Source: an uncultured Anaerolineae bacterium
GTDB taxonomy: Bacteria > Chloroflexota > Anaerolineae > VGOG01
DNA: 40,634 nucleotides
Assembly (NCBI GenBank): GCA_964592085.1
Contig: CAZQDO010000002.1
Location: 1 to 40,634 of the forward strand
Direction: 5' to 3'
The stretch's first letter is position 1, and each line of letters opens with the position of its first letter. Position numbers and translations under genes: made by a program. Shown here in pieces: positions 1,944 to 27,718 of this stretch. The notes beneath the pieces were generated by a model. That model worked only from the letters and a program-made list of their open reading frames with translations, searched no databases and had not been told where the DNA came from.

Positions 1944-1953
1944 GGAGGTTACT

Positions 1954-2379: not shown

Positions 2380-2403
2380 TCGTCTCCATAAGCTCAGAGA
2401 GGC

Positions 2404-2433: not shown

Positions 2434-2504
2434 GAGCATTCCGTGCCCTCACTGGTGCGAGTTTCATCGCCATCCAAATTAAGGTGGAAGAGGGGTGATT
2501 GAGT

Positions 2505-3254: not shown

Positions 3255-3265
3255 GCCTGGGGTAA

Positions 3266-3372
3266 CTGTTCACCCTCTCGCAGGTTCAGAGGTGGTTCTT
3301 TGGCAGAAACAGGCTGCAACATCGAATTTGAGGTGTTGAGCAAACCATTTGCGAACCTGCGGGAGGGTAGGC
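3266..3372 (+). mobile_element. MITE-like inverted-repeat element, copy 1 (most diverged)
   Basis: Left end CTGTTCACCCTCTCGCAGGTT and right end AACCTGCGGGAGGGTAGGC are inverted repeats. The termini match those at 17166-17278 and 26845-26960. Confidence 0.6.
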
Positions 3373-3422
3373 CTAAAGCTTGCACTGATGGTCAGTGCAC
3401 TGGCTTGAAGGAGGAGCATATC

Positions 3423-4421: not shown

Positions 4422-4440
4422 CAAGTTGAGGAGAACCTGT

Positions 4441-7980: not shown

Positions 7981-8022
7981 CCCAGCGCGGCGGTAGCGCG
8001 GCGAGATCTACCAGGAGTGTGA

Positions 8023-9105
8023 ATGGAAGCACAGTTGACGACGGATGTGACGCAGATTTCCCCCTCGCCTTTCATCACGGCAGACCTGCCTGGCATGGGC
8101 GGGGAAATGAAGGCGGAGCCGGCCCATTTCGCGGTTGAGGAGATCCCCCTGTATGAGCCAGTGGGGGAGGGCCAGCACGTCTACGTGTGTCTGACCCGCG
8201 AGGGGTGGACCACTCGCGCCCTGCAACGACGACTGGCACGTCTCTTCGGTCTGCGCGAAGTAGATGTAGGTTATGCAGGCCTGAAGGACAAGCATGCCCG
8301 CGTCACGCAAACGTTCTCTCTGCTTCTGCGAGACGTGGACGAGGCGACCGTGGCTCGCCGTATTGAGGAGAGCCTGCCGGTTGAAGTGGGATGGGTTCAG
8401 CGACATCGCAATAAGCTGAAGAGAGGGCATTTGTTGGGCAATCGCTTCCGCATCGTCGTGTTGCGCCCGGAGCCCGAAGCGCTGGCGCGGGCTGAGGCCG
8501 TCACGCAGGCGTTGCAGGCGCGCGGGCTGCCCAATTTCTACGGCCATCAGCGATTTGGAATCAACGGCGACAATGCGCGGCAAGGTCGTGAGGTGTTATT
8601 GGGACGAGGGCCGCGTGAGCGGTGGCTGAGGCGCTTCTTGCTCTCGGCGTATCAGGCGGCTTTGTTCAATGCCTGGCTGACTGAGCGCATCCGGCGCGGT
8701 TGGTTTGAGCGTTTGCTGACTGGCGACATCGCCAAGAAGACAGATACCGGCGGCCTGTTCGAGGTCGCAGATGCCCAGGTCGAGCTCGCGCGTTTCCAAG
8801 AGAGAGAGATCACCTACACCGGTCCGATCTACGGTGCGCGCATGCGTTGGGCAAGCGGCGAACCCGGCCAGTTGGAGCGGAAGATACTGGAGGACGCAGG
8901 CGTGACAATGGAGATGCTTCGTCGAGCGCGGCTGGATGGTAGTCGTCGTCCGGCCCGGCTGTTCCTGAGTGATCTTTGTATCGAGCCGCTTCCAGATGGG
9001 CTGGTGTTCGAGTTCTCGCTGCCCAAAGGGGCCTACGCGACGACCGTCTTGCGGGAGTTTATGAAAGCAGAGGTGACAGCCTTACCGGAGAAGCAGGTGG
9101 GCTAG
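8023..9105 (+). CDS. truD: tRNA pseudouridine(13) synthase TruD
   Basis: 360 aa. [25 protein letters not shown] (catalytic Asp motif GxKD) and NFYGHQRFG are TruD hallmarks. Confidence 0.85.
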
Positions 9106-9136
9106 TTTCAGTGCGTGCTGCACAGGAGGTGCCGCC

Positions 9137-10561
9137 ATGACGACTGCTTTGTGGTGGGTGCGCCGTGACTTGCGTCTGACGGACAACCAGTCCCTGGCCG
9201 CAGCCTTGACCCACGCCGACCTCGTGATCCCCGTCTTCGTGCTGGATCCGACGCTGCTGAATTCGCCCTACGTCGGGCCGAAGCGGGTGGCCTTCTTGCT
9301 GAGCGGTCTGCGGGCGCTGGACGCTGACCTGCGTATCCGAGGCAGCCGTCTGATCGTCCGCCAGGGCGTGCCCAGGGATGAACTCGCCGCCCTGTTGACC
9401 GAGTGCGGCGCCGGGGCCATCTTTGCCGAGGAGGACTTCTCACCCTACGCTCGGCAGCGCGACAGCGGCGTGGCCGAGCGATTGCCTCTGCACCTGGTCG
9501 GCGCTCCTATCGTCCATCGACCGGGAGCTGTCCTGAAGGCTGACGGTGCGCCCTACACGGTCTTCACGCCCTTTGGCCGCAAGTGGAAGGCCCTTCCGCC
9601 ACCACAAGCGGATGAGATTCTTCCGCCCCCAGATCGGATCCTCACGCCTTCAGGGGTGAACAGCCTGCCCATACCCACCGAACCGGCGCTCTCCCCCGAC
9701 GTGCCTTTTCTGCCAGGCGAAGCGGAAGCTCAACGCCGTCTTGGGGCCTTTGTGGGTGGTGAGGATCCGCCCATCTACCGCTACGCCACGATGCGTGATC
9801 GTCTGGATGTAGATGAGACCTCGCAGCTTTCTCCCTACTTGCGCTTCGGCGTGCTCTCCGCCCGCCAGGCAGTGGTAGCTTCCCTCGATGCGATAGCGGC
9901 GGCCCCTGATGCCGAGGACCGCGAAGGCGCCGAGACCTGGCTCAACGAGCTCATCTGGCGCGAGTTCTTCGTGCACATTCTTTACCACTTCCCCTACGTC
10001 CTGCAACAGAGCTTTCGTGCTGACCTGAGGACGATTCCCTGGGAGAACGCCCCGGGGGACTTCGCTGCCTGGTGTGAAGGGCGCACCGGCTACCCGGTGG
10101 TGGACGCCGCCATGCGACAGTTGGCCCAGACCGGCTGGATGCACAACCGGGCGCGTATGATCGTGGCCTCGTTTCTGGTGAAGCACCTGTTGGTTGACTG
10201 GCGCTGGGGAGAACGCTACTTCATGCAGCACCTGGTGGATGGTGATCCGGCGGCCAACAACGGCGGCTGGCAGTGGACGGCCGGCACCGGCACGGACGCC
10301 GCGCCCTACTTCCGCATCTTCAACCCTGTGTTGCAGGGCAGGAAGTACGACCCCCAGGGCGGCTTCGTGCGCCGTTGGGTGCCCGAGTTGGCCCGCCTGC
10401 CCGACAAGTTCATCCACCAGCCGTGGGAGATGCCCCTTCATGTTCAGCGGGAAGTTGGTTGCATCGTCGGGAAGGACTACCCCGCGCCTATCGTGGATCA
10501 TGCATGGGCACGGGAGCGGGCGTTGGCGACCTATGCACGGGCCAGGGAGGGACATAGATGA
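9137..10561 (+). CDS. phrB: deoxyribodipyrimidine (CPD) photolyase, class I / cryptochrome-photolyase family
   Basis: [13 protein letters not shown] at the N-terminus. The FAD-binding signature is [13 protein letters not shown]...[28 protein letters not shown]...[13 protein letters not shown]. Confidence 0.9.
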
Positions 10562-11127
10562 CTCACAGCTACCGCTCGGCATCTCTCGAAGCCTACGTCT
10601 CTGTGGACGTTGAGGCGGCAGGGCCTAACCCCAGCCAGTACTCTCTGCTATCCATCGGCGCCTGCCTGGTGTCCGATCCTCAGTGTACCTTCTACGTAGA
10701 GCTACAGCCCGTCAACGGCAACTTCACTCCAGAGGCACTGGTGGTCTCCCGCCTGTCGCTGGAGGAACTGGCCGAAGGCGGGCTGCCGCCGGCCGAGGCC
10801 CTGGCCTGCTTCGAGGCATGGCTGGCAGCCGAGGTCCCCCCTGCTCACCAACCCATCTTCGTGGCCTTTAACGCGCCTTTTGACTGGATGTTCGTCAACG
10901 ACTACTTCCACCGCTTCCTGGGGCGAAACCCCTTCGGCCACGCCGCTCTTGACCTGAAGGCCTTCTACATGGGGTTGACTGGCGTTCGCTGGTCGGAGAC
11001 CAGCATGCGCTACGTCGCCGCTCGCTACTTGGCCAACCGCCAGCTCACACACCACGCCCTGCGCGACGCCCAGGACCAGGCTGAGCTGTTCCAGAAGATG
11101 CTGGCTGAAGCAGCGGGTCGAGGGTAG
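10558..11127 (+). CDS. DEDDh-type 3'-5' exonuclease (DnaQ-like fold)
   Basis: The start ATG overlaps the photolyase stop (ATGA). Exo I is VDVEAAG, Exo II is [10 protein letters not shown], and Exo III is HHALRDAQD (H-x4-D). Confidence 0.7.
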
Positions 11128-11157: not shown

Positions 11158-11212
11158 ATGACTTTGGTCATAGACAGATGACCGCTCTATTGATATAATT
11201 GGGACAGGTTTC
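11158..11212 (+). promoter_or_regulatory. conserved intergenic promoter/terminator-like module, copy A (hairpin arm degraded)
   Basis: ATGACTTTGGTCAT palindrome (11158-11171), TAGACA, a 17-nt spacer, and TATAAT (11194-11199). The geometry matches copies at 21150, 21811 and 34021. It lies about 45 nt upstream of the TspO-like start. Confidence 0.55.
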
Positions 11213-11245
11213 AAAGTAAACAAAACTGAAAGGCGGAGGTTATTG

Positions 11246-12028
11246 ATGAAGAAAGATAATCTGAGACAATGGGTCAATGTGCTGGCAGTGATTGCAGTCA
11301 TTGTGATTAATGGGCTGGCCAACGCCCTGCCGCTCAACGGGCAGACCACCGGCGAAATCTCTGATCGGTTCCAGGTCTACTTCGTGCCGGCTGGCTACGT
11401 GTTCGCCATCTGGGGGCTGATCTACGTGGCACTGATCGCCTTCGCCGTGTACCAGGCGCTGCCTGCCCAGCGGGACAACCCGCGCCTGCGCAGCATCGGC
11501 TATCTGTTCGCCCTGAGTTGTGCGGCCAACATCGCCTGGATCTTTCTCTGGCACTATGAGGTCTTCCCACTGACCCTGGTGGCCATGCTGTCGCTCTTGC
11601 TGCTGCTGATCGCCATCTACTTGCGCCTGGACATCGGCCGCGCTCAGGTTCCTGCAGCCGAGAAGTGGCTGGTGCACATCCCGTTCAGCATTTACCTGGG
11701 CTGGATCACGGTAGCGACCATCGCCAACGTGACCTCGCTCCTGGACTATCTGAACTGGAGCGGGTGGGGCATTAGCCCTGAGGCGTGGACGGTCATCATG
11801 CTGGTCGCCGGTGTCGGCATTGCCTCGGCGGTGAGCCTCACCCGGGGCGACGTGGCCTACATGCTGGTCATCGTGTGGGCCTTCGCGGGCATCGCCGTCA
11901 AGCACGCTGGCACGCCGGTGGTGGCGACCGCCGCCTGGGTGACGACGGCGCTGGCGGCCCTGATGGTGGTGGTGGGTTTCCTTTACAGGAAACGGCTCAA
12001 GGAAAGACTTGGGAAGGGGATGAAATGA
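11246..12028 (+). CDS. TspO/MBR-related tryptophan-rich membrane protein (long form)
   Basis: GGAGGT sits 5 nt before ATG 11246. Multi-pass, Trp/aromatic-rich; NALPLNGQTTGEISDRF...FVPAGYVFAIWGLIY...IAWIFLWHY resembles proteins annotated as tryptophan-rich sensory protein. The assignment is from memory of the family, not a search. Confidence 0.55.
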   Translation: MKKDNLRQWVNVLAVIAVIVINGLANALPLNGQTTGEISDRFQVYFVPAGYVFAIWGLIYVALIAFAVYQALPAQRDNPRLRSIGYLFALSCAANIAWIFLWHYEVFPLTLVAMLSLLLLLIAIYLRLDIGRAQVPAAEKWLVHIPFSIYLGWITVATIANVTSLLDYLNWSGWGISPEAWTVIMLVAGVGIASAVSLTRGDVAYMLVIVWAFAGIAVKHAGTPVVATAAWVTTALAALMVVVGFLYRKRLKERLGKGMK

Positions 12029-12510
12029 GCCAGCGAATTGCATTGAACGTCCAAGCGCCCGGTTTTGCTCTTGAGGATTTTGATGGGCGAACGGTAAGGC
12101 TCTCGGATTACCGTGGGCAGAAACATGTGCTCTTGGTCTTTAACCGTGGCTTCACGTGACCGTTCTGCCGCCGGCACATGGCACAGTTGCGTCAAGACTA
12201 TGAGAAATTCGTGGAAAAGAACGCCGAGGTGATCGTGATCGGCCCGGAAGACAAGGCGACCTATGCTGACTACTGGCAAAGGGAGAACCTGCCCTTCATC
12301 GGTTTGCCCGACCCTCAACACTCCGTGCTGAAACTGTATGGTCAGGAGGTCAACTTGTTCAAACTGGGGCGTATGCCAGCTCAGGTGATCGTGGACTGGG
12401 AGGGTATAGCTCGCTATGTTCACTATGGTCACTCGATGAGCGACATTCCGCCCAATGAAGAACTCCTGGCCCTGCTCGACGAGTTGAATCAGGAAGGGAA
12501 AGCAAAGTGA
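12025..12510 (+). CDS. peroxiredoxin-like / AhpC-TSA (thioredoxin-fold) protein with in-frame TGA at the redox motif: candidate selenoprotein (T-U-P-F-C)
   Basis: Two track ORFs (ending 12159, restarting 12178) share one frame and are separated only by TGA 12157-12159. Read-through gives ...HVLLVFNRGFT-U-PFCRRHMAQLRQDYEKF..., the canonical position of the first Cys of a CxxC/Prx motif. The start overlaps the upstream stop (ATGA) and the stop overlaps the downstream start (GTGA). Confidence 0.6.
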
Positions 12511-13499
12511 TTCCCAACCAATGGTACGTCGTGATGGATCCTGAGCAAGTTAAAGACCGGCCCGTGGGCGTGACGCGCCTGGGCGAAAAGCTGGTCTTCT
12601 GGCGGGATGACACAGGCAAGGTGAGTTGCCTGCGCGACAAATGCGTTCACCGGGGCGTTCAACTCAGCAAGGGCAAGGTGACAGGCGGGTATATCCAGTG
12701 TCCGTTTCATGGCTTCGAGTACGATGCCACTGGTCGCGTCAAGCTCATCCCAGCCAACGGCAAGAATACGCCCGTGCCGGAGCGCTTCAAAGTCCACAGC
12801 TATCCCACCTACGAAAATCACGGCTTCATCTGGATCTGGTGGGGCGAGGAGCCGCCGGACGGCCTCAAGCCGCCGCGTTTCTTCGACGACCTGGACGATA
12901 GCTTCTCCTACGGCAGGGCCTATGACCCCTGGGATGCCCACTATTCCCGCGTCATCGAGAACCAGCTCGACGTGGTGCACCTACCCTTCGTGCACCACAA
13001 CACCATCGGGCGCGGCGGGCGCACGCTGGTGGATGGCCCTGTGGTCCGCTGGATGGATGAGGACATGTTCTTCGTCTACGTCTTCAACCGGGTGGACGAC
13101 GGCACGCCGCCGCGCAGTCCAGAGGAGTTGACGTCCTCGGAGGGCCAAGTGTACCTGGAGTTCATTTTCCCCAACCTGTGGCAGAATCACATCTCGGAAC
13201 AGACGCGCGTTGTGGCCGCCTTCGTGCCGGTGGATGAAGCCCACACCATCCTCTACTTGCGCTTCTACCAGAACTTCGTGCGGCTGCCGCTACTGCGCGA
13301 TCTGTTCAACTGGTTATCCATGCCGTTCAACTTGCTGATCGCTCATCAGGATCGGCGTGTGGTGGTCACGCAGCAACCCAAGCCCTCCGGGCTCAAGATC
13401 GGCGAGAAGCTGATCCAGGGCGACCGGCCCATCGTGGAGTACCGCCGGCGGCGACAAGAACTTCTGGATGAAGTCGCCCGGCCGTCCACGTCGGATTAA
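12507..13499 (+). CDS. Rieske [2Fe-2S] non-heme-iron oxygenase, single-subunit type (PaO/KshA-like architecture)
   Basis: The Rieske motif is CVHRG-x16-CPFHGF. The mononuclear iron motif is ENQLDVVHLPFVHHN (E/D-N-x2-D-x2-H-x4-H). 330 aa with no beta-subunit gene. Confidence 0.8.
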   Translation: MIPNQWYVVMDPEQVKDRPVGVTRLGEKLVFWRDDTGKVSCLRDKCVHRGVQLSKGKVTGGYIQCPFHGFEYDATGRVKLIPANGKNTPVPERFKVHSYPTYENHGFIWIWWGEEPPDGLKPPRFFDDLDDSFSYGRAYDPWDAHYSRVIENQLDVVHLPFVHHNTIGRGGRTLVDGPVVRWMDEDMFFVYVFNRVDDGTPPRSPEELTSSEGQVYLEFIFPNLWQNHISEQTRVVAAFVPVDEAHTILYLRFYQNFVRLPLLRDLFNWLSMPFNLLIAHQDRRVVVTQQPKPSGLKIGEKLIQGDRPIVEYRRRRQELLDEVARPSTSD

Positions 13500-13515: not shown

Positions 13516-13574
13516 CGGAGTCCCCAACTTGTTGGGGGTATGGTGCAATGAACCCGAACAAGTTCGGGACTCCG
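13516..13574 (+). promoter_or_regulatory. paired 16-bp palindromes / long imperfect hairpin between the Rieske and MFS genes
   Basis: CCCCAACTTGTTGGGG (13522-13537) and CCCGAACAAGTTCGGG (13553-13568) are each self-complementary. They are flanked by CGGAGT / ACTCCG, so the whole region can also fold as one 22-bp-arm hairpin. Confidence 0.45.
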
Positions 13575-13634
13575 CTGCCGCGAGGTTGTTGCCCCAGGTA
13601 TCAAAATCAAAGTGATGGGCTAAATAGGTGGAAA

Positions 13635-14846
13635 ATGGATGTAAGAAGACGTCTTGCTTTGCTCTTCGCTTTTGTTTTTGTTGACGTACTCGGTTTCAGC
13701 CTGATCCTGCCGCTGTTGCCCTACTACGCCGAGACCTTTGGGGCCACACCTACCCTCGTTGGGCTGTTGCTGGGCGCCAACGCGGCAGCCCAATTCATCG
13801 GGGCGCCGATCATCGGGCGACTCTCTGACCGCTACGGGCGGCGGCCCTTGTTGATCCTCAGCATCGCTGGCACGGTGGTCAGCTTTGTGATACTTGGCCT
13901 GGCGAACTCGTTGGAGATGCTTTTCGCCAGCCGCATCCTGGACGGACTTCTGGGAGGCAACGTCTCGCTGGCCCAGGCCTACATTACCGACGTGACCGAC
14001 GACAAGAACCGGGCCAGGGGACTGGGTCTCATCGGAGCCGCCTTCGGTCTGGGGTTCATCTTTGGCCCAGCGTTGGGCGGTGCGCTCAGCACCGGGGGAA
14101 ACTACAGTTTGCCTGCCTTCGTGGCCGCTGGCTTGTCGGCCCTCAACTTGTTGGGCGTGCTCATCTGGCTGCCGGAGTCGCTGCCCCCAGAAAGACGCGC
14201 CCAAATGGCCAGTCACCCTCGTACCGCGTTCACAGCTCGCGCGTTGCGGGAAGCGTTGCGTCGTCCCTGCGTTGGCCCACTGTTGCAGGTGACCCTCTTC
14301 TACGGCCTGGCCTTCACCATCTTTCAGACCATCTTTACGCTCTTCGCTGAAAGACGGTTGAGCCTGGACTCGCGAGCCGTGGGCTATGTGTTCACCTACG
14401 TGGGTTTGCTTATCGTGGCTATACAGGGCGGTGGGATGGGACTCCTGACCAAACGCTTCAGCGAAAAGCATCTCATCTTCGGTGGAACGATCCTTCTGAC
14501 CTTTTCGTTGTTAGCGTGGGCACTGACCCCGACGCTGTGGCTGTTGTTGCTGGTGCTGGCCCCGCTGTCCCTGGCCAGCGGCGTGCTCAGGGTTTCCATC
14601 AACAGCGCGCTGACCAAATCGGTCTATCCGGAGGAGGTGGGGGGGACATTGGGCATGTCCGCTTCACTGGAGAGTCTGACGCGGGTCGTGTCGCCCATTG
14701 TGGGTGGGTTCCTGCTTGATAATCTGGGAACGGCGGCCCCAGGCATTGCGGGTGCCCTGCTCATGAGTTTGCTGATTCCCTTCGTGTGGAGGCGGGTGCT
14801 TTTCGTGCCGGATTTGGTATGCCCTGAGCCGATATTAGAGGGATAA
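13635..14846 (+). CDS. MFS transporter (drug:H+ antiporter / Tet-like, 12 TM)
   Basis: ATG 13635 gives MDVRRRLALLFAFVFVDVLGFSLILPLLPYY. MFS motif A is GRLSDRYGRRPLL. The upstream ORF extension (13548) runs through the palindromes and is rejected. Confidence 0.8.
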   Translation: MDVRRRLALLFAFVFVDVLGFSLILPLLPYYAETFGATPTLVGLLLGANAAAQFIGAPIIGRLSDRYGRRPLLILSIAGTVVSFVILGLANSLEMLFASRILDGLLGGNVSLAQAYITDVTDDKNRARGLGLIGAAFGLGFIFGPALGGALSTGGNYSLPAFVAAGLSALNLLGVLIWLPESLPPERRAQMASHPRTAFTARALREALRRPCVGPLLQVTLFYGLAFTIFQTIFTLFAERRLSLDSRAVGYVFTYVGLLIVAIQGGGMGLLTKRFSEKHLIFGGTILLTFSLLAWALTPTLWLLLLVLAPLSLASGVLRVSINSALTKSVYPEEVGGTLGMSASLESLTRVVSPIVGGFLLDNLGTAAPGIAGALLMSLLIPFVWRRVLFVPDLVCPEPILEG

Positions 14847-14927: not shown

Positions 14928-15698
14928 ATGAACAATGAGCGGACTTTTACAGGGTTGCGCAGATTTAACGCAGCGATGGGTTTGCTCCACCTGGTGCAGG
15001 GGATCCTGATGATCGTTCTCAGCAACGATACCACCTATCCCATCACCACCGCCTACCTCAAGTTCGATTTCGAGAACTTCAAACTGACCTCGAATCTTCA
15101 GGAGACGGGAGAGCTGTTGTTTGGCCCGGCTGTCGCGGTGTTCCTGCTACTCTCGGCCGTGGCGCACTTCAGCCTGTCCACCTTCGGCTACAAGTGGTAC
15201 GTGAGGAATCTCAAGAAGGGCATGAACCCCGCCCGCTTCTACGAGTACGCCCTCAGTTCGTCGCTGATGATCGTCTTGATAGCCATGCTGGTAGGCATGT
15301 ACGACCTGCCCAGCCTGATCCTGATCTTCTCGCTGAACGCCATGATGAATCTGTTCGGCCACATGATGGAACTGCACAACCAGACAACGCCTCGCACCAA
15401 CTGGACGGCCTTCATCTACGGCTGTATCGCCGGGATCGTGCCGTGGATTACGATTGTGATGTATTTGGTTGGCGCGGCCCAATCGGTGGATGCCAAGCCG
15501 CCAGCGTTCGTATACGCCATCATCGCCTCCATCTTCGTGTTCTTCAACATCTTCGCGGTCAACATGTTCTTGCAGTACAAGAAGGTTGGCCCGTGGAAGA
15601 ACTACCTGTTTGGAGAGCGGATGTTCATCGTGCTGAGCCTGGTCGCCAAGACGGCCCTGGCCTGGCAGATATTCGCTGGCACCTTGGCCCCTGTTTAA
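14928..15698 (+). CDS. heliorhodopsin (inverted-topology type-1-like rhodopsin)
   Basis: AGGAGG sits 7 nt before ATG 14928. By eye it aligns along its whole length with the heliorhodopsin 48C12 sequence as I remember it. Matching segments are FNAAMGLLHLVQ, AVAHFS, RFYEYALSSSLMIVLIA (counterion Glu), YGCIAGIVPW, FVYAII.SIFVFFN, LQYKK.G.W.NYL.GER..IVLSLVAKTALAWQIFAGTL (Schiff-base Lys). Confidence 0.9.
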   Translation: MNNERTFTGLRRFNAAMGLLHLVQGILMIVLSNDTTYPITTAYLKFDFENFKLTSNLQETGELLFGPAVAVFLLLSAVAHFSLSTFGYKWYVRNLKKGMNPARFYEYALSSSLMIVLIAMLVGMYDLPSLILIFSLNAMMNLFGHMMELHNQTTPRTNWTAFIYGCIAGIVPWITIVMYLVGAAQSVDAKPPAFVYAIIASIFVFFNIFAVNMFLQYKKVGPWKNYLFGERMFIVLSLVAKTALAWQIFAGTLAPV

Positions 15699-15710
15699 TC
15701 AGAGGATTGT

Positions 15711-16187
15711 ATGAGCCGCTTGAGGCCTGACAAATTGCACGTCCGGTTTGCTGCCGGGGCAAGCCCAGACGGGCCGAGCACTCCCCGCCACTACACCCTG
15801 ACCCACTCCGACGCGACGGGGGACCTGTATCTCACCATCGGGCCGGACTACGACCGCCGGCAGATCTCAGGGTGGTATACCCGCTTAATGCGAGACGAGG
15901 TGCTGGCCGAGTGGCGGCAAGAGAAGGATGGCCCAGCCCTCCACGTTCACTGTCACGTGAGCGGTGGGTTGGTGATCGGCTCGGCTGGCTGGCGATATGC
16001 CATCTTCCAAAGAGAGTTGCCGCTGGTGTTGGAGGCCTTTCGCTTTGGCGACCGGCGGCTCTTTGAGATCGAGCCTGGGCTGGATCGGGCGCCCATTTGG
16101 GTGCATTTCCACGCCGCACAGCTTGGCTACAATAAGACCGAGTCGTGGGGCGTTCCCGCCGATTACCCTGAGAGGGGAGAGGCGTGA
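15711..16187 (+). CDS. Staygreen (SGR) family protein, Mg-dechelatase homologue
   Basis: Starts 12 nt after the heliorhodopsin stop. PRHYTLTHSD, GWYTRLMRDEVLAEW, LHVHCHVSGG, IFQRELPLVLEAF, IWVHFH and ESWG match the conserved SGR-domain blocks of plant SGR1 and bacterial homologues. Confidence 0.85.
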   Translation: MSRLRPDKLHVRFAAGASPDGPSTPRHYTLTHSDATGDLYLTIGPDYDRRQISGWYTRLMRDEVLAEWRQEKDGPALHVHCHVSGGLVIGSAGWRYAIFQRELPLVLEAFRFGDRRLFEIEPGLDRAPIWVHFHAAQLGYNKTESWGVPADYPERGEA

Positions 16188-17248
16188 GGCATTGGATGTT
16201 TGTTTGCCTTATCGTGGTCGTGGTGTTGCTGGTCATTCTGTTGGTCGGCCCCTTGGTGATCCCCTTGCCTCCGCTGGAGGGCGCTGTGCCGCCGCAGAAG
16301 TTGGCCGATCCCGACAGCCGTTTCGTTGACATAAACGGCCTACAAGTGCACTACAAGATGGCGGGCCAGGGTGAGCCTACGGCGGAAAACCTCGCGTTGG
16401 TGCTGCTGCACGGCTTCGCTGCCAGCGTCTTCTCCTGGCGCGAAGTCATGGATCCGCTGTCCGAAATCGGCACGGTGATGGCCTTCGACCGGCCCGCCTT
16501 CGGCCTGACCGAGCGCCCCCTGCCGGGCGAGTGGGTGGGTGAGAGCCCCTACGGTGCCGAGGCACAGATAGAGTTGACCGTTGGCTTGCTGGACGAGCTG
16601 GGGTTGGATCGGGCGATTCTGGTGGGCAACTCCGCTGGAGGCACCATCGCTATGCTCACGGCCTTGACCTATCCAGAGCGGGTGCAGGCTTTGGTGCTGG
16701 CGGATCCCGCCGTCTATGCCCACGGTGGCTGGATGGGCCTCGCCCGTTTCTTCGCCAACACGCCGCAGACGCAACGAATTGGGCCGCTGTTAGTTCGGAG
16801 GATCCGCGCCTGGGGGATGGACTTCGCTCGCTCTGCCTGGCACGATCCGTCGAAGATCACAGCCGAGGTTTGGGAGGGATACCTGAAGCCGCTACGGGCG
16901 GAGAACTGGGATCGGGGCCTATGGGAGTGGGTTCGCGCCAGCCAGTCCCACGATTTGGCGGAGCGGCTGGCTGAGATTCGGATGCCCTGCCTGGTCATCA
17001 CCGGCGACGATGACCGCATCGTGCCGGCGGAGCAGAGCGTCCGTCTGGCCGGTGAGCTGCCTGACGCCGAATTGGTGGTCATCCCAGACTGCGGCCACAT
17101 TCCCCACGAGGAGTGCCCGGAGGCGTTTTTGCAGGCAGTGGCCGATTTCTTGGACAAGCTGCCAACTGCTCACCCTCCCGCAGGTTTGGTCGGTGGTATC
17201 GGGCAAAACGTTAACTTCGGGCAAATATCCGGGCACCCTGTCCGATAA
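16184..17248 (+). CDS. membrane-anchored alpha/beta-hydrolase (serine esterase; pheophytinase/MhpC-like fold)
   Basis: GTG 16184 overlaps the SGR stop (GTGA); the alternative ATG is 16196. N-terminal TM helix (FVCLIVVVVLLVILLVGPLV), LLHGFAAS oxyanion region, GNSAGG nucleophile elbow and DCGHIPHEE catalytic His. The last ~29 codons (from ~17160) are encoded by MITE copy 2. Confidence 0.8.
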   Translation: MRHWMFVCLIVVVVLLVILLVGPLVIPLPPLEGAVPPQKLADPDSRFVDINGLQVHYKMAGQGEPTAENLALVLLHGFAASVFSWREVMDPLSEIGTVMAFDRPAFGLTERPLPGEWVGESPYGAEAQIELTVGLLDELGLDRAILVGNSAGGTIAMLTALTYPERVQALVLADPAVYAHGGWMGLARFFANTPQTQRIGPLLVRRIRAWGMDFARSAWHDPSKITAEVWEGYLKPLRAENWDRGLWEWVRASQSHDLAERLAEIRMPCLVITGDDDRIVPAEQSVRLAGELPDAELVVIPDCGHIPHEECPEAFLQAVADFLDKLPTAHPPAGLVGGIGQNVNFGQISGHPVR

Positions 17249-18559: not shown

Positions 18560-18590
18560 AAGAAAGATGAAACGAAAGGAGTCCAGACCA

Positions 18591-20858
18591 ATGAAGAAAG
18601 CGATTCTACTACTCACACTTTTTGCCATGCTGGTGACAGGGAGCGTCGTCACCGCAGCACCACCGAGCCAGGTGCCCGACGGGGAGACGTACATCGTGCA
18701 AGCGGGCGACTGGCTCCTGAAGATCGCCGAGAAGTTCTACGGCGATGCGGCCGCCTACCGCATCATCGTGGAGGCCACCAATGCCAAAGCCGCTGAAGAC
18801 GCCAGCTTTGTCGTGATTGACGACCCTAGCCTGATCAGGGTGGGACAGAAGCTGTGGATCCCATCTCCCGAAGTGGCGACCGAGGTCGTTGCCTACGTGC
18901 CACCTGTGCCCTCCGAAACCCATGATGGATACTGCTGGACCAACTTCTTGAACTCGCCCTACTCGTGGAGCTGTATGGTTGACAGCCAGATTTTCGAGCC
19001 TTGCCTCACCGCGACGAACGGTGAAACCATCGTCTGCAACATTGATCCACTGGACGAGGGCAAGCATTTCGGCCTGAACCTGACTGAACCGCTCCCTGAG
19101 CCGCAAGAAGCTCAACCAGATGCTCCGATATCGGGGATGACCTGGTTGCTGGAATTGGGCGATGGCGTCGTTTGCGGCCTGTTCAGTGGTGCATCCATTG
19201 GGTTCGATGAGAAGCGCGTGAACTACGGCTGCACCGACGGCACGGACATTCTGGGTGACCCGCAGCCCGGCACTGTCTGGACCGTCGAACAAATCGTGGT
19301 GGGTCATGACGAGGACGGTTTCTTCATCGAAGAGTCGGAAATCGTGCCGGTGATCAGAGCCTGGCAGCCAGGTAATCCCACCACCGACGGAAAAGGACTG
19401 ACCCTGGAGGCCCTGCAAAACGCTGTGTATCAGGGCATCTACGACGAACCCGTACAACTGACCGATGGGCAGTACGAAGGCGAGCCCTTCGTTCCAGGTG
19501 GCGCGTCACGGCCAACGGTCACACTGCACCCAGAGGTCTACGCCTTCGGCGATCTCAACGGCGATGGGGTGGACGATGCGGCGGTGATTCTGATCGAGAG
19601 CTCCGGTGGCAGTGGCAGCTTCCTCTATCTGGCGGCCGTCGTCAATGAAAGTGGGGCACCGGTGAACGTCGCTACCCAGTTCGTGGGGGATCGCGAGCAG
19701 GTACAGGCGATCAGCGTTGAGGCTGGTGAGATCACTCTCGAAATGGTCGCCCACGGCCCGGATGATCCCATGTGCTGCCCGACCCAGGAAGTGACGAAGG
19801 TGTACCAGTTGCAGGATGACCAACTGGTTGAGGTGCTCGTGGGTCTGGAAGGCACAACGTGGGTACTGGTCTCTTATGGCGATCCAAGCGATCCTCAGGC
19901 TGTTCTGGAAGGCACTGAGATCACGGTCGTATTCGACAGTGCTGAAGGTAGAGTCAGCGGCTCTGCGGGCTGCAACAGCTACTTCGGGTCGTATGAGGTT
20001 GACGAGGGCACAATCACCTTTGGCCTGCTGGGCGCTACCCTGATGGCGTGCCTTGAGCCAGAAGGGGTCATGGAGCAGGAAGCGGCCTATTTTGCGGCGC
20101 TGGACTCGGTTGTTACCTATCACATTCAGGGTGACAAGCTGGAGATGGGGGATACAGACGGCGCGCTGGTGCTGCAATTCACCGCTGTAAGCGAAGCGGC
20201 GCCGACCGAGGTGGTTGATGGGGAAGCGTACGTCGTGCAACCAGGCGACTGGCTCACGAAGATCGCCAGGAACTTTTACGGTGATGCCGATGCCTACCGT
20301 GTCATCGTGGAGGCCACCAACGCCAAAGCCGCTGATGATGCGAGCTTCGCCATCATTGACAACCCCAGCCTGATCAGAGTGGGGCAGAAGCTATGGATCC
20401 CTGCCCAGCCGGGTAGTCTGACCCTGGAGGCCCTGCGAAACGCTGTGTATCAGGGCATCTACGATGAGCCTGTGCAACTGACCGATGGGAAGTATGAAGG
20501 CGAGTCCTTCGTTCCAGGTGGCGCGTCACGGCCAACAGTCACGCTGTATCCTGAGGTCTACGCCTTCGGCGATCTCAACGGCGATGGGGTAGATGATGCG
20601 GCAGTGATTCTGATCGAGAGCTCCGGTGGCAGTGGCAGCTTCCTCTATCTGGCGGCCGTCCTCAATGAGGGGGGGACACCCGTGAACATCGCTACCCAGT
20701 TCGTGGGGGATCGCGAGCAGGTACAGGCGATCAGCATTGAGGCTGGCGAGGTCACCCTCGAAATGGTCGCCCACGGCCCCGGTGATCCCATGTGCTGTCC
20801 GACCCAGGAAGTCACGAAGAGATATCGGTTGCAGGGCGATCAACTGGTTGAGCTGTGA
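18591..20858 (+). CDS. secreted multidomain protein: LysM - Cys-rich domain - repeat domain R - META (HslJ-like) - LysM - repeat domain R
   Basis: The signal peptide MKKAILLLTLFAMLVTGSVVTAAPP follows AAGGAG. There are two LysM motifs (Y.VQ.GDWL.KIA..FYGD...Y..I..ATN...IRVGQKLWIP). The META-like segment is WVLVSYGD...GSAGCNSYFGSYEV...ATLMAC. The R domain contains FGDLNGDGVDDAAV. Confidence 0.75.
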   Translation: MKKAILLLTLFAMLVTGSVVTAAPPSQVPDGETYIVQAGDWLLKIAEKFYGDAAAYRIIVEATNAKAAEDASFVVIDDPSLIRVGQKLWIPSPEVATEVVAYVPPVPSETHDGYCWTNFLNSPYSWSCMVDSQIFEPCLTATNGETIVCNIDPLDEGKHFGLNLTEPLPEPQEAQPDAPISGMTWLLELGDGVVCGLFSGASIGFDEKRVNYGCTDGTDILGDPQPGTVWTVEQIVVGHDEDGFFIEESEIVPVIRAWQPGNPTTDGKGLTLEALQNAVYQGIYDEPVQLTDGQYEGEPFVPGGASRPTVTLHPEVYAFGDLNGDGVDDAAVILIESSGGSGSFLYLAAVVNESGAPVNVATQFVGDREQVQAISVEAGEITLEMVAHGPDDPMCCPTQEVTKVYQLQDDQLVEVLVGLEGTTWVLVSYGDPSDPQAVLEGTEITVVFDSAEGRVSGSAGCNSYFGSYEVDEGTITFGLLGATLMACLEPEGVMEQEAAYFAALDSVVTYHIQGDKLEMGDTDGALVLQFTAVSEAAPTEVVDGEAYVVQPGDWLTKIARNFYGDADAYRVIVEATNAKAADDASFAIIDNPSLIRVGQKLWIPAQPGSLTLEALRNAVYQGIYDEPVQLTDGKYEGESFVPGGASRPTVTLYPEVYAFGDLNGDGVDDAAVILIESSGGSGSFLYLAAVLNEGGTPVNIATQFVGDREQVQAISIEAGEVTLEMVAHGPGDPMCCPTQEVTKRYRLQGDQLVEL
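19398..19835 (+). repeat. intragenic duplication, unit 1 (domain R)
   Basis: A near-identical nucleotide copy lies exactly 1020 nt downstream (20418-20855), with scattered, mostly third-position or conservative substitutions by eye. Confidence 0.85.
20418..20855 (+). repeat. intragenic duplication, unit 2 (domain R)
   Basis: Copy of 19398-19835. It runs to the last sense codon of the gene. Confidence 0.85.
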
Positions 20859-21257: not shown

Positions 21258-21752
21258 ATGTTAAACAAGCCCATGCAGGACGCAATGAACGAGCAGATCA
21301 AGAACGAGCTCTACTCTGCCTACATCTACCTCTCAATGTCAGCCTACTTCGAGGACACCAGTCTCCCCGGCTTTGCCCACTGGATGCGAGTGCAGGCGCA
21401 GGAGGAGCAGGAGCACGCGATGAAGTTCTACCACTTCATCAACGAGCGGGGTGGCCGTGTTGTCCTTCAGGCCATTGATCAGCCGCCTATGGAATTTGAG
21501 TCACCCCTCGATGTGTTCGAGCGCACCCTCGAACATGAGCAGAGAGTGACGGGTTTGATTCATCAACTGTACGCCCTCGGCGTTCAGGAGCAGGACTACG
21601 CCAGCCAGATCTTTCTGCAGTGGTTCGTGACAGAGCAGGTCGAGGAAGAGGCCAACGCTACTCAGATCGTAGAGACGCTGAAGCTCATCGGCGATAAGCG
21701 CCATGCTCTCCTCATGCTGGATCGAGAGCTGGGCAGCCGGGGAGCTGACTAG
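21258..21752 (+). CDS. ftn: ferritin (non-heme, Ftn-type)
   Basis: MNEQIKNELYSAYIYLSMSAYF...HWMRVQAQEEQEHAMKFYHFINERGG contains the ferroxidase-centre Glu/His ligands. 164 aa. Confidence 0.9.
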   Translation: MLNKPMQDAMNEQIKNELYSAYIYLSMSAYFEDTSLPGFAHWMRVQAQEEQEHAMKFYHFINERGGRVVLQAIDQPPMEFESPLDVFERTLEHEQRVTGLIHQLYALGVQEQDYASQIFLQWFVTEQVEEEANATQIVETLKLIGDKRHALLMLDRELGSRGAD

Positions 21753-21810
21753 ACGAGCCACCGGCTGAGAAATGCGTCGGAGTGCGGACGTGGGTCTGCC
21801 CGATGCCTGA

Positions 21811-21870
21811 ATGACTTTTGTCATAGACAGTCGGCTGCCCTGGGGATATGATAAGGGCAGCCATTTTTTT
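21811..21870 (+). promoter_or_regulatory. conserved intergenic promoter/terminator-like module, copy C (between ferritin and copA)
   Basis: Perfect palindrome ATGACTTTTGTCAT (21811-21824), TAGACA, a 17-nt spacer and TATGAT (21847-21852). The hairpin GGCTGCCC/GGGCAGCC is followed by T7. Confidence 0.6.
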
Positions 21871-21964
21871 GAGAACATGGATGGACAGGATTTACGGCTT
21901 ATCCTACCAGTCCGTTAAATCCCGCCAGTCCGTTGTTCCTCTCTTTGGAAAAGGAGGTAACCAA

Positions 21965-24505
21965 ATGACAAAACAGGTCACTTTGCCAGTCCAGGGCATG
22001 ACCTGCGCCTCGTGCGTGGTGCACGTGGAGGGGGCTCTGAAAGGCGTTGAGGGGGTGAGCGCAGCTAACGTCAACCTGGCCACCGAAACGGCCAGCGTGG
22101 AGTTCACTCCTGAGGGGGCGGAGGTGAGCCAGTTGATTTCGGCCGTGCGTGACGTTGGCTACGATGTGGCTACTGAAAAGGTGTCCCTGCCCATCGGCGG
22201 GATGACCTGCGCCAGTTGCGTGGCTCACGTCGAAGGGGCATTGGCCGACATTCCTGGCGTGGTGAGCGCCAACGTCAACCTGGCCACCGAAAAGGCTGCA
22301 GTAGAATACATCCCCACCATGACCGGGCTGCCCGATTTCCGCCGTGCCGTGGCCGAGGTGGGCTACGAGGTATTGCCTACTGCGGAGGAGAAAGCAGAAG
22401 AGGAACTCTCCCGCGAGGTACGCAAGATGCAGGACGCACGACGCAGGATGCTGCTGGCCTGGGCCTTCACCATCCCCATCATCCTGTGGATGCTGCCGGA
22501 GATGCTGGCCGGCCTGGCCTGGCCCAACGAGACGATTTTCAAGCTGGGGATGCTGCTGCTGGCCACGCCGGTGCTCTTCTGGGTCGGGCAGCACACCTAC
22601 GTGGCGGCCTGGCGCTCGACGACGCACGGCGCGCCCAACATGGACGCCCTGATCGCTATGGGCACTGGGGCCTCTTTTCTCACTGGCATCGCCACGTTCT
22701 TCGCCCCCATCCCCACCTACGCCGGGGTGTCAGCCATGATCATGGCCTTCCACCTGACCGGCCGCTACGTGGAGGCCAGCGCCAAGGGGCGAGCATCGCA
22801 GGCCATCCGCAAGCTGCTGGAGCTGGGGGCCAAGACCGCCCGCATCCTCGTAGATGGCGACGAGAGAGAGGTTCACATTGACGAAGTGCAGCCGGGCGAC
22901 GTGATGCTCGTCCGGCCCGGTGAGCAGATTCCCACCGACGGGATCGTGGTGCGTGGCGAGAGCGCGGTGGACGAGTCCATGGCCACCGGCGAATCCATGC
23001 CCGTCAACAAGCGCGCGGGCGACGAGGTGATCGGGGCTACGGTCAACCAGGACGGGCTGCTCAAAGTACGGGCCACCCGGGTGGGCAAGGACACCTTCCT
23101 GGCTCAGGTGGTGCGCCTGGTCGAGCAGGCTCAAGGCACCAAAGTGCCCATCCAGGCCTTCGCCGACCGGGTGACGGCCGTCTTCGTGCCCATCGTCCTG
23201 GCCGTGGCCCTGCTCACTTTTCTGGCCTGGCTGCTGTTCCCCGATACGCTGAGGCCCATCGCTGTGTGGGCCAGCCGTTTCCTGCCCTGGGTGGACCCCA
23301 ACCTGAATACGTTCACCCTGGCCTTGATCACCGCCGTCTCCGTGCTGGTCATCGCCTGCCCCTGCGCCCTGGGGCTGGCTACGCCCACGGCGTTGATGGT
23401 CGGCAGCGGCATCGGAGCCGAGAATGGCATCCTCATCCGCTCCGGCGAAGCAATCCAGGCCATGCGCGACGTGCGGGTGGTGGTGTTCGACAAGACGGGG
23501 ACGCTCACCAAAGGGCAACCTGAGGTGACGGACCAAATATCCAATGCCCAATATCAAATGTCAAGCGTGAAACGTGAAACGTCAAACGTGAAACGTCAAT
23601 CTGTCGCTGAGGAATTGCTCTACTGGGCAGCGTCGGTGGAGGTGGGGAGCGAGCATCCGCTGGGTAGAGCGGTGGTGCGTAAGGCCGAGGAGCAAGGGAT
23701 TGCGCTGGGAGACCTGACCGAGTTCGAGACACTGCGTGGCAAGGGCGTGCGAGGCATCGTGGATGGGAAGAGGGTGTTGGTGGGCAGCCGGGCGCTGATG
23801 GAGGAAAACGGTGTAGAGGTGACGTCGATGGAAGACGAGATGCGTCGCCTGGAGGACGAAGGGAAGACGGCCATGTTGGTCACTGTGTACGAGGATGGAG
23901 TCCCGAACTTGTTCGGGGTCCTGGCCGTGGCCGACACCCTCAAAGACGACGCCGTGGCCGCCGTCCGCGAACTGAAGGCGCTGGGCTTGCGCACAGTGAT
24001 GATCACCGGCGACAACCAGCGCACGGCACAAGCTATTGCCCGTCAAGTAGGCATTGACCACGTACTGGCCGAGGTGCTGCCGGAGGACAAGCTGGTCGAG
24101 GTCAAACGATTGCAGGCGGAAACCGATGGATTGGTGGCTATGGTCGGCGACGGCATCAACGACGCGCCGGCCCTGACCCAGGCTGATGTGGGCATCGCCA
24201 TCGGCACCGGCACGGACATCGCCATTGAGGCCGCCGACGTCACCCTGGTGCGCGGCGATCTCTCCGGCGTGGTCAGTGCCGTCAAGCTCTCCCGGGCCAC
24301 CTTCAACAAAGTGATACAAGGGCTATTCTGGGCCTTCTTCTACAACGTGGTCATGATCCCCCTGGCCATCCTGGGGATGATGCACCCCGTGCTGGCCGAG
24401 ATCGCCATGGCCACCAGTTCGATCACCGTGGTCACCAACGCCAATTTGCTGCGACGAGTGAACATCCGTCCTGTAGGGCAAAATGCCATTTTGCCCACTA
24501 TGTGA
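21965..24505 (+). CDS. copA: Cu(I)-translocating P1B-1-type ATPase with two N-terminal HMA domains
   Basis: AAGGAGG precedes ATG 21965. There are two GMTCASC motifs, a TM CPC ([11 protein letters not shown]), DKTGTLT and GDGINDAP, plus YN in TM7 and MATSS in TM8. The 21848 ORF extension reads through module C and is rejected. Confidence 0.9.
23560..23601 (+). repeat. six tandem heptanucleotide units inside copA (GTCAAGC GTGAAAC GTGAAAC GTCAAAC GTGAAAC GTCAATC)
   Basis: Read directly from the sequence. It is an AT-rich patch in a GC-rich gene and encodes [14 protein letters not shown] just after [15 protein letters not shown], where P1B ATPases normally run quickly into the SEHPL motif. Confidence 0.85.
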
Positions 24506-24516
24506 AAAGGATACCC

Positions 24517-27070: not shown

Positions 27071-27311
27071 ACTGAGTAAGGACTTCAGCTTTATCAACAT
27101 ACACGCCCCCTACAACGAGATCGAGAAGTACGTCAATCATCTTCCTCAGGACAGGGATGCCAAGATTGTGCTGTACTGTCGCAGTGGGCCTCTGAGTGCT
27201 GCCGCTAGCAAAACGCTGGTTGAGATGGGGTACACGAAGGTGATAGATGTGGAGGGCGGGATGAAGGCATGGCAGGCAGCCGGATATGAGCTGCTATACC
27301 GGTCGAAGTGA
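27057..27311 (+). CDS. rhodanese-domain protein, probably 5'-truncated by the repeat insertions
   Basis: DFSFINIHAPYNEIE...DAKIVLYCRSGPLSAAASKTLVEMGYTKVIDVEGGMKAWQAAGY has the active-site loop CRSGPLS. The N-terminal codons (MDLLRLSK) are encoded by the palindromic element and its flanking repeat. No signal or leader region remains. Confidence 0.55.
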   Translation: MDLLRLSKDFSFINIHAPYNEIEKYVNHLPQDRDAKIVLYCRSGPLSAAASKTLVEMGYTKVIDVEGGMKAWQAAGYELLYRSK

Positions 27312-27322
27312 GGAGGTATCCG

Positions 27323-27718
27323 ATGAGTGAGAAGAGATATGGCATAACTACCTGGCTTGACTTGCCGTATGAGGAAGCCGTGGAGAAGACGAAGGCGGCC
27401 TTGCAAGAGGAGGGTTTCGGCGTCTTGACCGAGATTGATGTCAAGGCCACATTCAAGAAGAAGCTGGATGCGGACTTCCGAAAGTACGTTATCCTGGGGG
27501 CTTGCAATCCTCCGCTGGCCCACCGCGCGCTCCAGGCGGAGCTGGAAGTTGGATTGCTGCTGCCGTGCAACGTCATCGTCTACGAAGAGGATGGCGGGAC
27601 GGTCGTCTCGGCCATTGATCCCCTGGCGGCGATGAGCATCGCGGAGAGTCCGGCGCTGGAGGAAGTGGTCACGACGGTCAACGCCAAGCTGAACCGTGTA
27701 ATCGAAGCACTTGGGTGA
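27323..27718 (+). CDS. DUF302-family protein
   Basis: AGGAGG sits 6 nt before ATG 27323. AVEKTKAALQEEGFGVLTEIDVKATFKKKL...KYVILGACNPPLAHRAL...GLLLPCNVIVYE fits DUF302. Confidence 0.75.
   Translation: MSEKRYGITTWLDLPYEEAVEKTKAALQEEGFGVLTEIDVKATFKKKLDADFRKYVILGACNPPLAHRALQAELEVGLLLPCNVIVYEEDGGTVVSAIDPLAAMSIAESPALEEVVTTVNAKLNRVIEALG

Follow-up and report, generated by a model that had tools for sequence, protein, structure and literature searches.

Heliorhodopsins (HeRs) have been reported to bind and modulate the products of genes within their own operons, namely glutamine synthetase, photolyase and the ABC multidrug pump OmrDE (OcHeR, light-activated), and ten groups of HeR operon neighbours are on record, among them alpha/beta hydrolase, MerR, SDR, photolyase and ABC transporter (PMC11109279). 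HeR neighbourhoods are also rich in genes for AhpC/TSA, photolyase, SOUL, MFS, DegV and DUF1295 proteins (Chazan et al., bioRxiv 10.1101/2021.02.16.431466). A second described system is the Staygreen (SGR) homologue AbSGR-h from the Anaerolineae SM23_63 metagenome-assembled genome (MAG), a crystallised, active Mg-dechelatase (PDB 7Y5Y; PMC8531759) of broad specificity that takes Mg from chlorophyll (Chl) a/b/c, chlorophyllide and protochlorophyllide (PMC11006732); in the portions of these two papers that we searched, neither its native role nor its gene neighbourhood is discussed. In addition, RudS (TudS-DUF1722), photolyase and LitR are encoded in light-inducible operons (PMC11417400), and in Vibrio photolyase and CFA synthase take part in a blue-light/singlet-oxygen response under MerR and ChrR (PMC5241685). 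Here we describe a 40,634-nt stretch of a contig from an uncultured Anaerolineae bacterium (the window, to which coordinates refer unless a locus is named) in which a HeR gene is followed directly by genes for an SGR homologue and a transmembrane (TM)-anchored alpha/beta hydrolase (the esterase ABH).

Analysis of the three genes revealed that they are packed like an operon on the + strand. The HeR gene (14928..15698, 256 amino acids) ends with TAA at 15696-15698, and the ATG of the SGR gene (15711..16187, 158 amino acids, predicted to be cytoplasmic) stands 12 nt further on. The hydrolase gene (16184..17248, 354 amino acids) begins with a GTG at 16184 that runs over the SGR stop codon TGA at 16185-16187, producing a 4-nt overlap (GTGA), and no terminator-like site was present on the + strand between about 14400 and 17300. 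Thus the arrangement of HeR partner operons, one strand and short spacing (sensu PMC11109279), is found here, with a 12-nt gap, a 4-nt overlap and no terminator-like site. An earlier note on this DNA had called the three genes as a heliorhodopsin, a Staygreen protein and an alpha/beta hydrolase in operon-like packing without a hairpin, and profile searches and the junctions agree with it on each count. The same note treated the trio as a self-contained HeR-SGR-esterase module, which does not hold: the trio makes up the 3′ part of an array whose genes all run in one direction with minimal spacing (TspO-like protein, selenocysteine (Sec) peroxiredoxin, Rieske oxygenase, MFS transporter, HeR, SGR and ABH), followed after the hydrolase gene by GlgC.

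Because SGR elsewhere also adjoins genes for MFS pumps, TspO-like proteins, SDRs, Sec-peroxiredoxin, photolyase, RudS, MsrA/B and CarH/LitR-type regulators, we consider it very probable that the trio ends a photo-oxidative-stress island that is shuffled among genomes, is typical of Anaerolineae-type Chloroflexota and has SGR as a frequent, previously unnoticed member. The best overall explanation of the locus, to which we give not quite an even chance, is that the trio forms the co-transcribed 3′ end of such a light-stress island with light-linked disposal of photosensitising Mg-tetrapyrroles.

Scanning one genome per GTDB species with an SGR alignment yielded at least 586 loci. In the best 80 of these (66 bacterial and 14 archaeal), which were examined further, Anaerolineae, other Chloroflexota, Dehalococcoidia, Bathyarchaeia, Thor- and Hadarchaeota and a handful of further groups were represented. 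Neighbours within 8 kb of SGR were counted by tblastn with the window proteins and representatives of other recurrent neighbours. The MFS pump was the most frequent, at 18/80 loci (adjacent to SGR in 9 and on the same strand in 18), followed by HeR (14/80; adjacent 10, same strand 13) and peroxiredoxin (14/80; 3 and 13, in the same order). Photolyase (11/80; 1 and 11), a regulator with MerR and B12-binding domains (11/80; 2 and 10), the window-type esterase ABH (10/80; 5 and 10), SDR-DUF2867 (10/80; 8 and 8), DegV (9/80; 0 and 7), RudS (DUF1722; 8/80; 2 and 8) and SDR-DUF1731 (8/80; 0 and 6) were also recurrent, as were DUF1295 (7/80; 1 and 7), a second esterase, ABH5 (7/80; 4 and 7), TspO-like proteins (7/80; 5 and 6; loci include L006, L034, L052, L054 and L055), MsrA (6/80; 0 and 5), MsrB (6/80; 4 and 5), a CrtI-like protein (5/80; 0 and 5) and the Rieske oxygenase (3/80; 0 and 3). 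At least one of these families was present at 52 of the 66 bacterial loci and at 4 of the 14 archaeal ones. Of the bacterial loci, 28 carried a light marker (HeR, photolyase, MerR+B12 or RudS), 15 an esterase, 18 an MFS pump and 13 a HeR. Several long arrays were shared, including the order MerR_B12-SDR-x-CrtI-like-Phr-Prx-SGR-SDR-MFS (Phr, photolyase; Prx, peroxiredoxin) in L063, L064 and L067, with a variant lacking the MFS gene in L019. With genes for photolyase, B12 photoregulators, HeR, singlet-oxygen repair and efflux pumps around SGR, these neighbourhoods point to a light-linked, photosensitiser-related role for SGR. In organisms that do not make chlorophyll, the sole known property of SGR homologues is dechelation in vitro, and this linkage is the first genomic clue to their role.

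A few archaeal loci shared this context. In a Bathyarchaeota MAG (L062), positions 5723-11092 read MsrA ... SGR-MsrB-RudS-HeR on one strand, and of two other exceptions (L055, L047) one locus has the order TspO-like-SGR and another SGR-RudS. Because such exceptions exist, the light-stress association crosses domains.

HeR was found within 8 kb of SGR at 13/66 bacterial loci compared with 0.4-0.7 expected within that radius if a 3-Mb genome holds one or two copies of the gene, an excess with P <1e-12 when loci are taken as independent and of 0.0005-0.006 when the independent events are put at only four. This excess, together with the same-strand orientation of 13/14 pairs and their recurrence in independent metagenomes, effectively refutes the explanation that the adjacency is due to chance or is neutral and has no functional meaning, for which only the facultative nature of the HeR-SGR link speaks. 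The earlier note had named adjacency confined to this genome as grounds for abandoning its proposal; since the neighbourhood survey found the adjacency to recur, at those 13 bacterial loci and in independent metagenomes, that refutation fails.

At 10/80 loci HeR stood directly beside SGR on the same strand; it preceded SGR in nine of them and followed it in L005. The gaps were 15-228 nt overall and 15-101 nt in the HeR-upstream pairs. A neighbour-joining tree of SGR placed the HeR-upstream arrangement in at least four subclades. The outer neighbours of the pair varied, with MFS, Rieske, ABH or RudS upstream and Prx, DUF1295 or ABH5 downstream; for example, the order was MFS-HeR-SGR in L031, L086, L113, L165, L167 and L169, ABH-HeR-SGR in L033 and L044, and Rieske-HeR-SGR in L041. 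This pattern bears on a credible alternative, which we rate as a serious minority possibility, that HeR, SGR and the esterase are effectors that work independently within a single light-stress regulon, brought together by shared promoters in a shuffled island, with no action of HeR on SGR or the esterase. The variety of immediate SGR neighbours (MFS 9, SDR_DUF2867 8, TspO-like 5, ABH 5, ABH5 4 and MerR_B12 2) speaks for co-regulation by itself, and the same stress families are also found beside proton pumps (Chazan et al., bioRxiv 10.1101/2021.02.16.431466). However, HeR and SGR remain a tight same-strand pair while their outer neighbours change and SGR identities fall to ~60%, and a constant pair amid changing neighbours is a classical signature of functional coupling. 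In addition, each HeR operon partner tested in PMC11109279 was reported to bind HeR.

Viewed from the HeR side, the association was weaker. Among the 80 closest HeR relatives in JGI metagenomes, 57 had at least 600 nt of sequence downstream of HeR, and SGR followed HeR at only three of these (L086, L089 and L113; gaps of 80-101 nt), compared with 0.24 expected (P 0.002). The related HeR loci carried DUF1295, an esterase, peroxiredoxin, DegV or SDR-DUF2867 more often than SGR, which, for DUF1295, ABH, Prx and DegV, also favours co-regulation alone. Since HeR accompanies SGR at 13/66 bacterial SGR loci (~20%) and SGR accompanies HeR at 3/57 related HeR loci (~5%), the HeR-SGR link is real but facultative and asymmetric. 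The coupling of HeR to SGR proposed in the earlier note therefore stands as recurrent adjacency and falls short as a fixed association.

Unbiased neighbourhoods, taken from the precomputed Pfam annotation of metagenome contigs, showed the same families in other combinations. On a 44-kb JGI contig (P0110) a single strand reads DegV-HeR-MerR/B12-DUF1475-SGR-RudS-MFS-SDR/DUF1731-x-Rieske/VanA_C-Abhydrolase_5-Abhydrolase_1. Other contigs read DegV-DUF4345-DUF1295-Rieske-photolyase-SGR, and a further one DegV-DUF1295-MFS-SGR-ABH5-DUF1475-CMAS with photolyase, a canonical TspO and an SDR on the opposite strand. Close relatives reproduced the arrangement of the window, with (MFS)-HeR-SGR-ABH-Prx-GlgC in L165 and L166, with the same 12-nt gap and 4-nt overlap, DegV-DUF1295-TspO-like-DUF4345-DUF3159-Rieske-MFS-HeR-SGR-ABH in L169, and RudS-DUF1801x2-CMAS-tocopherol cyclase-PlsY-Rieske-MFS-HeR-SGR-ABH5-ABH in L167 and L168. 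In the last pair, positions 1555-4845, immediately before Rieske-MFS-HeR-SGR, hold genes for CMAS (CFA-synthase-like), a tocopherol-cyclase-like protein (PF14249) and PlsY; plants make tocopherol from the phytol that chlorophyll sets free. The small membrane proteins DUF1475, DUF4345 and DUF3159 recur among the island genes and beside SGR (P0110, L163/L164, L161, L169 and L170) and may be further members of the light-stress island.

The SGR protein of the window matched Pfam PF12638 with E 5e-49 (166 bits; cutoff 27) and AbSGR-h (PDB 7Y5Y) over residues 1-153 with 208 bits (E 7e-61). R26, Y28, T29, H32, D34, D62 and D114 were all present and invariant in the SGR alignment; according to PMC8531759, mutagenesis found these residues (catalytic D34 and D62; H32; R26, Y28, T29 and D114) to be needed for activity or folding. 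The protein accordingly passes every sequence test for a Mg-dechelatase, and the Staygreen identity given in the earlier note can be sharpened to that of a close homologue, with the catalytic residues kept, of an enzyme with proven Mg-dechelatase activity. Three of the surveyed loci (L010, L014 and L073) lie on short contigs of MAGs labelled Pseudolabrys, Planctomycetaceae and Zixiibacteriota; because their SGR sequences nest among those of Anaerolineae on the tree, binning contamination or recent transfer is suggested.

The HeR assignment was equally clear. Its open reading frame spans 14895/14928 to 15698, and the start at 14928, which has AGGAGG just before it, yields exactly the 256-amino-acid product deposited in public gene calls. 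The protein matched PF18761 with E 2e-101 (338.7 bits; cutoff 26.7) and the NCBIfam HeR equivalog NF038020 with 367 bits (cutoff 100), and its nearest solved structures were TaHeR (6IS6, E 2e-77) and 48C12 (6SU3, E 8e-60). The Schiff-base Lys in SLVAKTALAW, the counterion Glu in FYEYALSSS and the His residues in LLHLVQ and AVAHFS were invariant or at least 90% conserved in an alignment of 15 homologues and aligned with those of TaHeR, so that the motifs named in the earlier note, like those of the hydrolase triad described below, are both present and conserved in 15 homologues or orthologues each. Amino acid identities between the window and L165, L167 and L169 were 95-96% for HeR, 81-85% for SGR, 78-82% for the esterase and 87% for the Rieske protein. 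Because it is far more conserved than the SGR, esterase and Rieske proteins encoded with it, HeR appears to be constrained unusually strongly among close relatives.

The positively charged intracellular loop 1 (ICL1) of HeR (YVRNLKKGMNPAR) was also conserved among the homologues, a feature consistent with an alternative in which the real partner of HeR is the MFS pump encoded directly upstream, as for OcHeR and OmrDE, and SGR and the esterase are passengers. The MFS-HeR order is kept in the window and in L031, L086, L113, L165, L167 and L169, and activation of the OmrDE pump by OcHeR offers a precedent (PMC11109279). Yet the MFS gene pairs directly with SGR without HeR in nine loci, and HeR-SGR pairs lack an adjacent MFS gene in L007, L018, L035, L041 and L057, making this alternative decidedly improbable in our view.

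The esterase matched Abhydrolase_1 (Pfam, E 5e-33) and contains a putative catalytic triad of Ser in GNSAGG, Asp in TGDDDRIVP and His in CGHIPHEE (CGHxPxEE) with an oxyanion motif, LLHGF; the triad, the LLHGF motif and an N-terminal hydrophobic helix were kept in 15 orthologues. Its best PDB matches were Est1, PlaF (6I8W) and MCP hydrolases. Two distinct types of TM-anchored esterase, ABH and Abhydrolase_5 (ABH5), recur directly beside SGR, and the 4-nt overlap between the SGR and esterase genes of the window is also found in L165, L166 and L169. Because two TM-anchored types adjoin SGR and the overlap is kept in the window lineage, the SGR-esterase pairing is stronger than a general co-location of stress genes would require. 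ABH5 (Abhydrolase_5 with a TM helix), which occurs outside the window, recurs just downstream of SGR in L025 (6491-7264), L163 (10514-11263) and L167 (8730-9443) and is closely homologous to AroC (PDB 9EH6, E 9e-81), a fold-5 hydrolase of thermophiles that was mined as a PETase and whose native role is undiscussed in that report (PMC12177695). The chlorophyllase profile matched ABH5 only in one paralogue elsewhere, with E 0.014.

The similarity to PlaF raises the possibility that the island serves membrane-lipid repair, in which a PlaF-like esterase would remove photo-oxidised acyl chains, HeR would act in lipid remodelling, and SGR would be a promiscuous dechelatase whose native substrate is not chlorophyll. 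PlaF aligned to residues 13-329 of the esterase, including the TM helix (E 2e-21), DegV, DUF1295, CMAS, PEMT and PlsY recur in the island, and lipid remodelling has been proposed as a role for HeR (Chazan et al., bioRxiv 10.1101/2021.02.16.431466). Against this, SGR keeps all of the residues for Mg dechelation and has a highly active close homologue, proteins related to TspO, members of a family that binds tetrapyrroles, recur beside SGR, and the esterase is as similar to generic esterases and MCP hydrolases as to PlaF. We regard lipid repair as an unlikely explanation of the island.

Comparison of promoters at related loci suggested how the island may be controlled by light. The genes for the MerR+B12 regulator, present in 11/80 SGR loci and on the P0110 contig, have sigma-70-type promoters ~100 nt upstream in L038, L059, L063, L064, L067 and L069, in which a TTGACA-type -35 element lies inside two or three TnnACA-like repeats spaced by 11 bp. 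Repeats spaced by 11 bp over the -35 element are the CarH operator layout. The repeats were found at the regulators' own promoters; in the intergenic gaps of the window none was found. Where it is present, a CarH-like regulator could by itself explain light control, a further point for co-regulation without any action of HeR on its neighbours.

In the window, the array that ends with the trio lies downstream of a CPD photolyase gene (Phr, 9137..10561, + strand; FAD_binding_7 E 7e-96, DNA_photolyase E 5e-41 and NCBIfam photolyase models), which is just upstream of it on the same strand and in translational overlap with a gene for a DEDDh (RNase T-like) exonuclease (10558..11127, + strand; RNase_T E 3e-7). 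In L001, the nearest locus and part of an Anaerolineae MAG, Phr, the exonuclease, ABH and GlgC genes are contiguous. The only sizeable intergenic gap of the array, 115 nt long, contains the best sigma-70-like promoter match of the region (11171..11199, + strand), TAGACA-17-TATAAT with a TG, which agrees at 11/12 positions and is a match to consensus only. Next is the gene for a TspO/MBR-related membrane protein (11243..12028, + strand, 261 amino acids; ATG 11246 is the likelier start), which matched PF03073 with 24.2 bits (cutoff 24); five of nine orthologues matched TspO_MBR (best E 2e-7) and a profile search of the PDB with this protein gave no match, so that it appears to be a borderline TspO/MBR member.

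The following gene (12025..12510, + strand) encodes a peroxiredoxin-like (AhpC/TSA) selenoprotein candidate with an in-frame TGA at 12157-12159 in the motif NRGFT-U-PFC. The C-terminal part of its product matched AhpC-TSA and Redoxin, with a weak match to a SelL-related redox model. The TGA was kept in 20/20 homologous loci, and a 17-nt segment about 20 nt 3′ of it, AUGGCGCAGUUGCGCCA, was invariant among homologous loci even at wobble positions. This segment folds as a GGCGC/GCGCC hairpin with an AGUU loop that resembles a selenocysteine insertion sequence (SECIS) and lies at ~12180-12193 in the window, with one mismatch and one G-U pair. The z-score for folding of the single sequence, -0.63, is uninformative on one sequence, and the comparative conservation of the TGA and wobble positions was used instead. 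Most likely the gene encodes a UxxC redox protein with selenocysteine and is divided by gene callers into two open reading frames, as in L165.

The array continues with a Rieske non-haem-iron oxygenase (Pfam Rieske + VanA_C; 12507..13499, + strand), whose nearest PDB structures are DdmC, NdmA and SxtT, and an MFS efflux-type transporter (DHA1, Tet(A)-like; 13548..14846, + strand; MFS_1 E 2e-54) directly upstream of HeR, which scored 199 bits, under the cutoff, with the Tet family model. HeR and photolyase were the only photoactive proteins seen in the window. The remainder of the window is devoted to metal homeostasis and two-component systems; the metal genes (2499-3254, 21258-26661, 27308-27718, 31747-34002 and 35839-36603) encode two ZIP transporters, ferritin, three P-type ATPases (two with HMA domains) and a DUF302 protein. 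A 763-amino-acid LysM/META/LppP-like secreted protein (18567-20858) contains a large internal duplication, in which a LysM segment and a block of ~130 amino acids (LTLEAL...YQGIYDEPVQLTDG...CCPTQEVTK) each occur twice with high identity.

We propose the following scheme for the disposal of photosensitising tetrapyrroles. Chlorophyll-type Mg-tetrapyrroles from the environment, such as phototroph debris, would enter the membrane and make singlet oxygen in light. Cytoplasmic SGR would strip Mg from them, and one or more membrane esterases would cleave an ester, either the phytyl ester or that of a damaged lipid. The product would then be exported by the MFS pump and/or oxidised by the Rieske oxygenase, while peroxiredoxin and Msr would repair damage. 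HeR would supply the light dependence, most plausibly by binding and modulating the product of an adjacent gene, be it SGR, the esterase or the MFS transporter. That SGR, esterase and MFS pump together dispose of tetrapyrroles is quite possible, though short of probable; if they do, this would be relevant to the proposal that plant SGR came from bacteria and to the way in which heterotrophs living in mats and sediments deal with chlorophyll debris when illuminated. Direct control by HeR of a neighbour-encoded protein seems to us rather unlikely; for SGR in particular, triggering by HeR would be plausible solely through the precedent of HeRs that bind their operon partners (PMC11109279).

Exogenous substrates are expected because the window contains no photosynthesis genes. 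The same absence of photosynthesis or bch genes from the 40-kb window, and the occurrence of the same SGR clade in MAGs of Dehalococcoidia, Bathyarchaeia, Thor- and Hadarchaeota, argue against endogenous pigment turnover, in which SGR would recycle the (bacterio)chlorophyll of a cryptic phototroph. Some Anaerolineae-related lineages have acquired phototrophy, which lends this alternative a little weight, but we consider it very improbable.

Several results weigh against light-linked tetrapyrrole disposal. Pheophytin and pheophorbide are still photosensitisers, and because Mg-free chlorins remain so, removal of Mg by itself is no detoxification. The esterase, which the earlier note had called dephytylase-like, is to judge from its matches a generic one, neither chlorophyllase nor BchO: PF07224 and PF12740 gave no match at E up to 0.01, the BchO model (TIGR03056) gave 82 bits against a cutoff of 172.6, amid many unrelated hydrolase models, and the closest architectural match is the TM-anchored phospholipase PlaF. 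Applied to MRHW-TM-PLPPLEG, the positive-inside rule places the catalytic domain of the esterase outward, so that this domain is probably extracytoplasmic and SGR cytoplasmic. The Rieske protein lacks the C-terminal PaO domain PF08417 (Pfam) that marks the pheophorbide a oxygenase family (PAO/Tic55/PTC52), and its nearest structures are others, ruling out PAO. With regard to light, CarH/LitR control was rejected for the window, tblastn with a MerR+B12 representative finding nothing in the 40 kb, and a crude three-repeat operator pattern derived from the related promoters had 0 matches in the window compared with 0.56 expected. HeR is absent within 8 kb at 80% of bacterial SGR loci, the facultative HeR-SGR pattern is as compatible with co-regulated members of a regulon as with physical partners, and 10/14 archaeal SGR loci have no island context.

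The most specific version of tetrapyrrole disposal is a light-gated disarming of foreign chlorophyll in Chloroflexota without evident photosynthesis genes and in some archaea, in which HeR would activate, or scaffold at the membrane, the Mg-dechelatase and an ester-cleaving hydrolase, and the Rieske protein would oxidise or the MFS pump export the product. We consider this version speculative and unlikely. If true, it would give bacteria a functional equivalent of the SGR-PPH-PAO logic of plants, perhaps even the source from which that logic evolved, and heliorhodopsin a new class of output.

In relation to published work, HeR partner operons in a light-stress context were known, and what is new is SGR as a member and the conserved array Rieske-MFS-HeR-SGR-esterase. 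The ten HeR operon-neighbour groups of PMC11109279 do not include SGR, 'Staygreen' was not found in the accessible portion of Dataset S3 of Chazan et al., and a literature search found no paper joining heliorhodopsin with dechelatase, staygreen or stay-green, nor did we find one listing SGR and HeR as members of a CarH/LitR or sigmaE-ChrR regulon. SGR together with a TM esterase thus represents an undescribed recurrent operon partner of HeR.

Finally, comparison of the locus with known systems revealed partial similarity to each of them. As in the HeR partner operons (PMC11109279), the window HeR is co-directional and tightly spaced with enzyme and transporter genes and has a conserved positively charged cytoplasmic loop, and the alpha/beta hydrolase, MerR, SDR and photolyase groups are already listed there; Staygreen, however, lies outside the ten described groups. 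Related SGR loci share photolyase, RudS, CFA-synthase-like proteins, SDRs, DUF1295, TspO and peroxiredoxin/Msr with CarH/LitR operons and the sigmaE-ChrR regulon, and CarH-type 11-bp repeats occur at their regulator promoters, whereas the window has neither such a regulator nor such an operator. The window esterase resembles PlaF, the TM-anchored phospholipase A1 of Pseudomonas aeruginosa (6I8W), in combining a single N-terminal TM helix with an alpha/beta hydrolase domain, but it is no more similar to PlaF than to soluble Est1 or MCP hydrolases. AbSGR-h shares with the window SGR all seven catalytic or structural residues (E 7e-61) but was studied in vitro only, and the present analysis of SGR loci adds a genomic link to HeR, photolyase and CarH-like regulators. 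Similarity to the plant PAO/phyllobilin pathway (SGR, PPH and PAO) lies in the same first enzyme family, clustered here with a serine esterase and a Rieske mono-oxygenase, and in the same logic of disarming a photosensitiser; the differences are that the window esterase is not demonstrably PPH- or chlorophyllase-like, that the Rieske protein is without PaO and that there is no RCCR.

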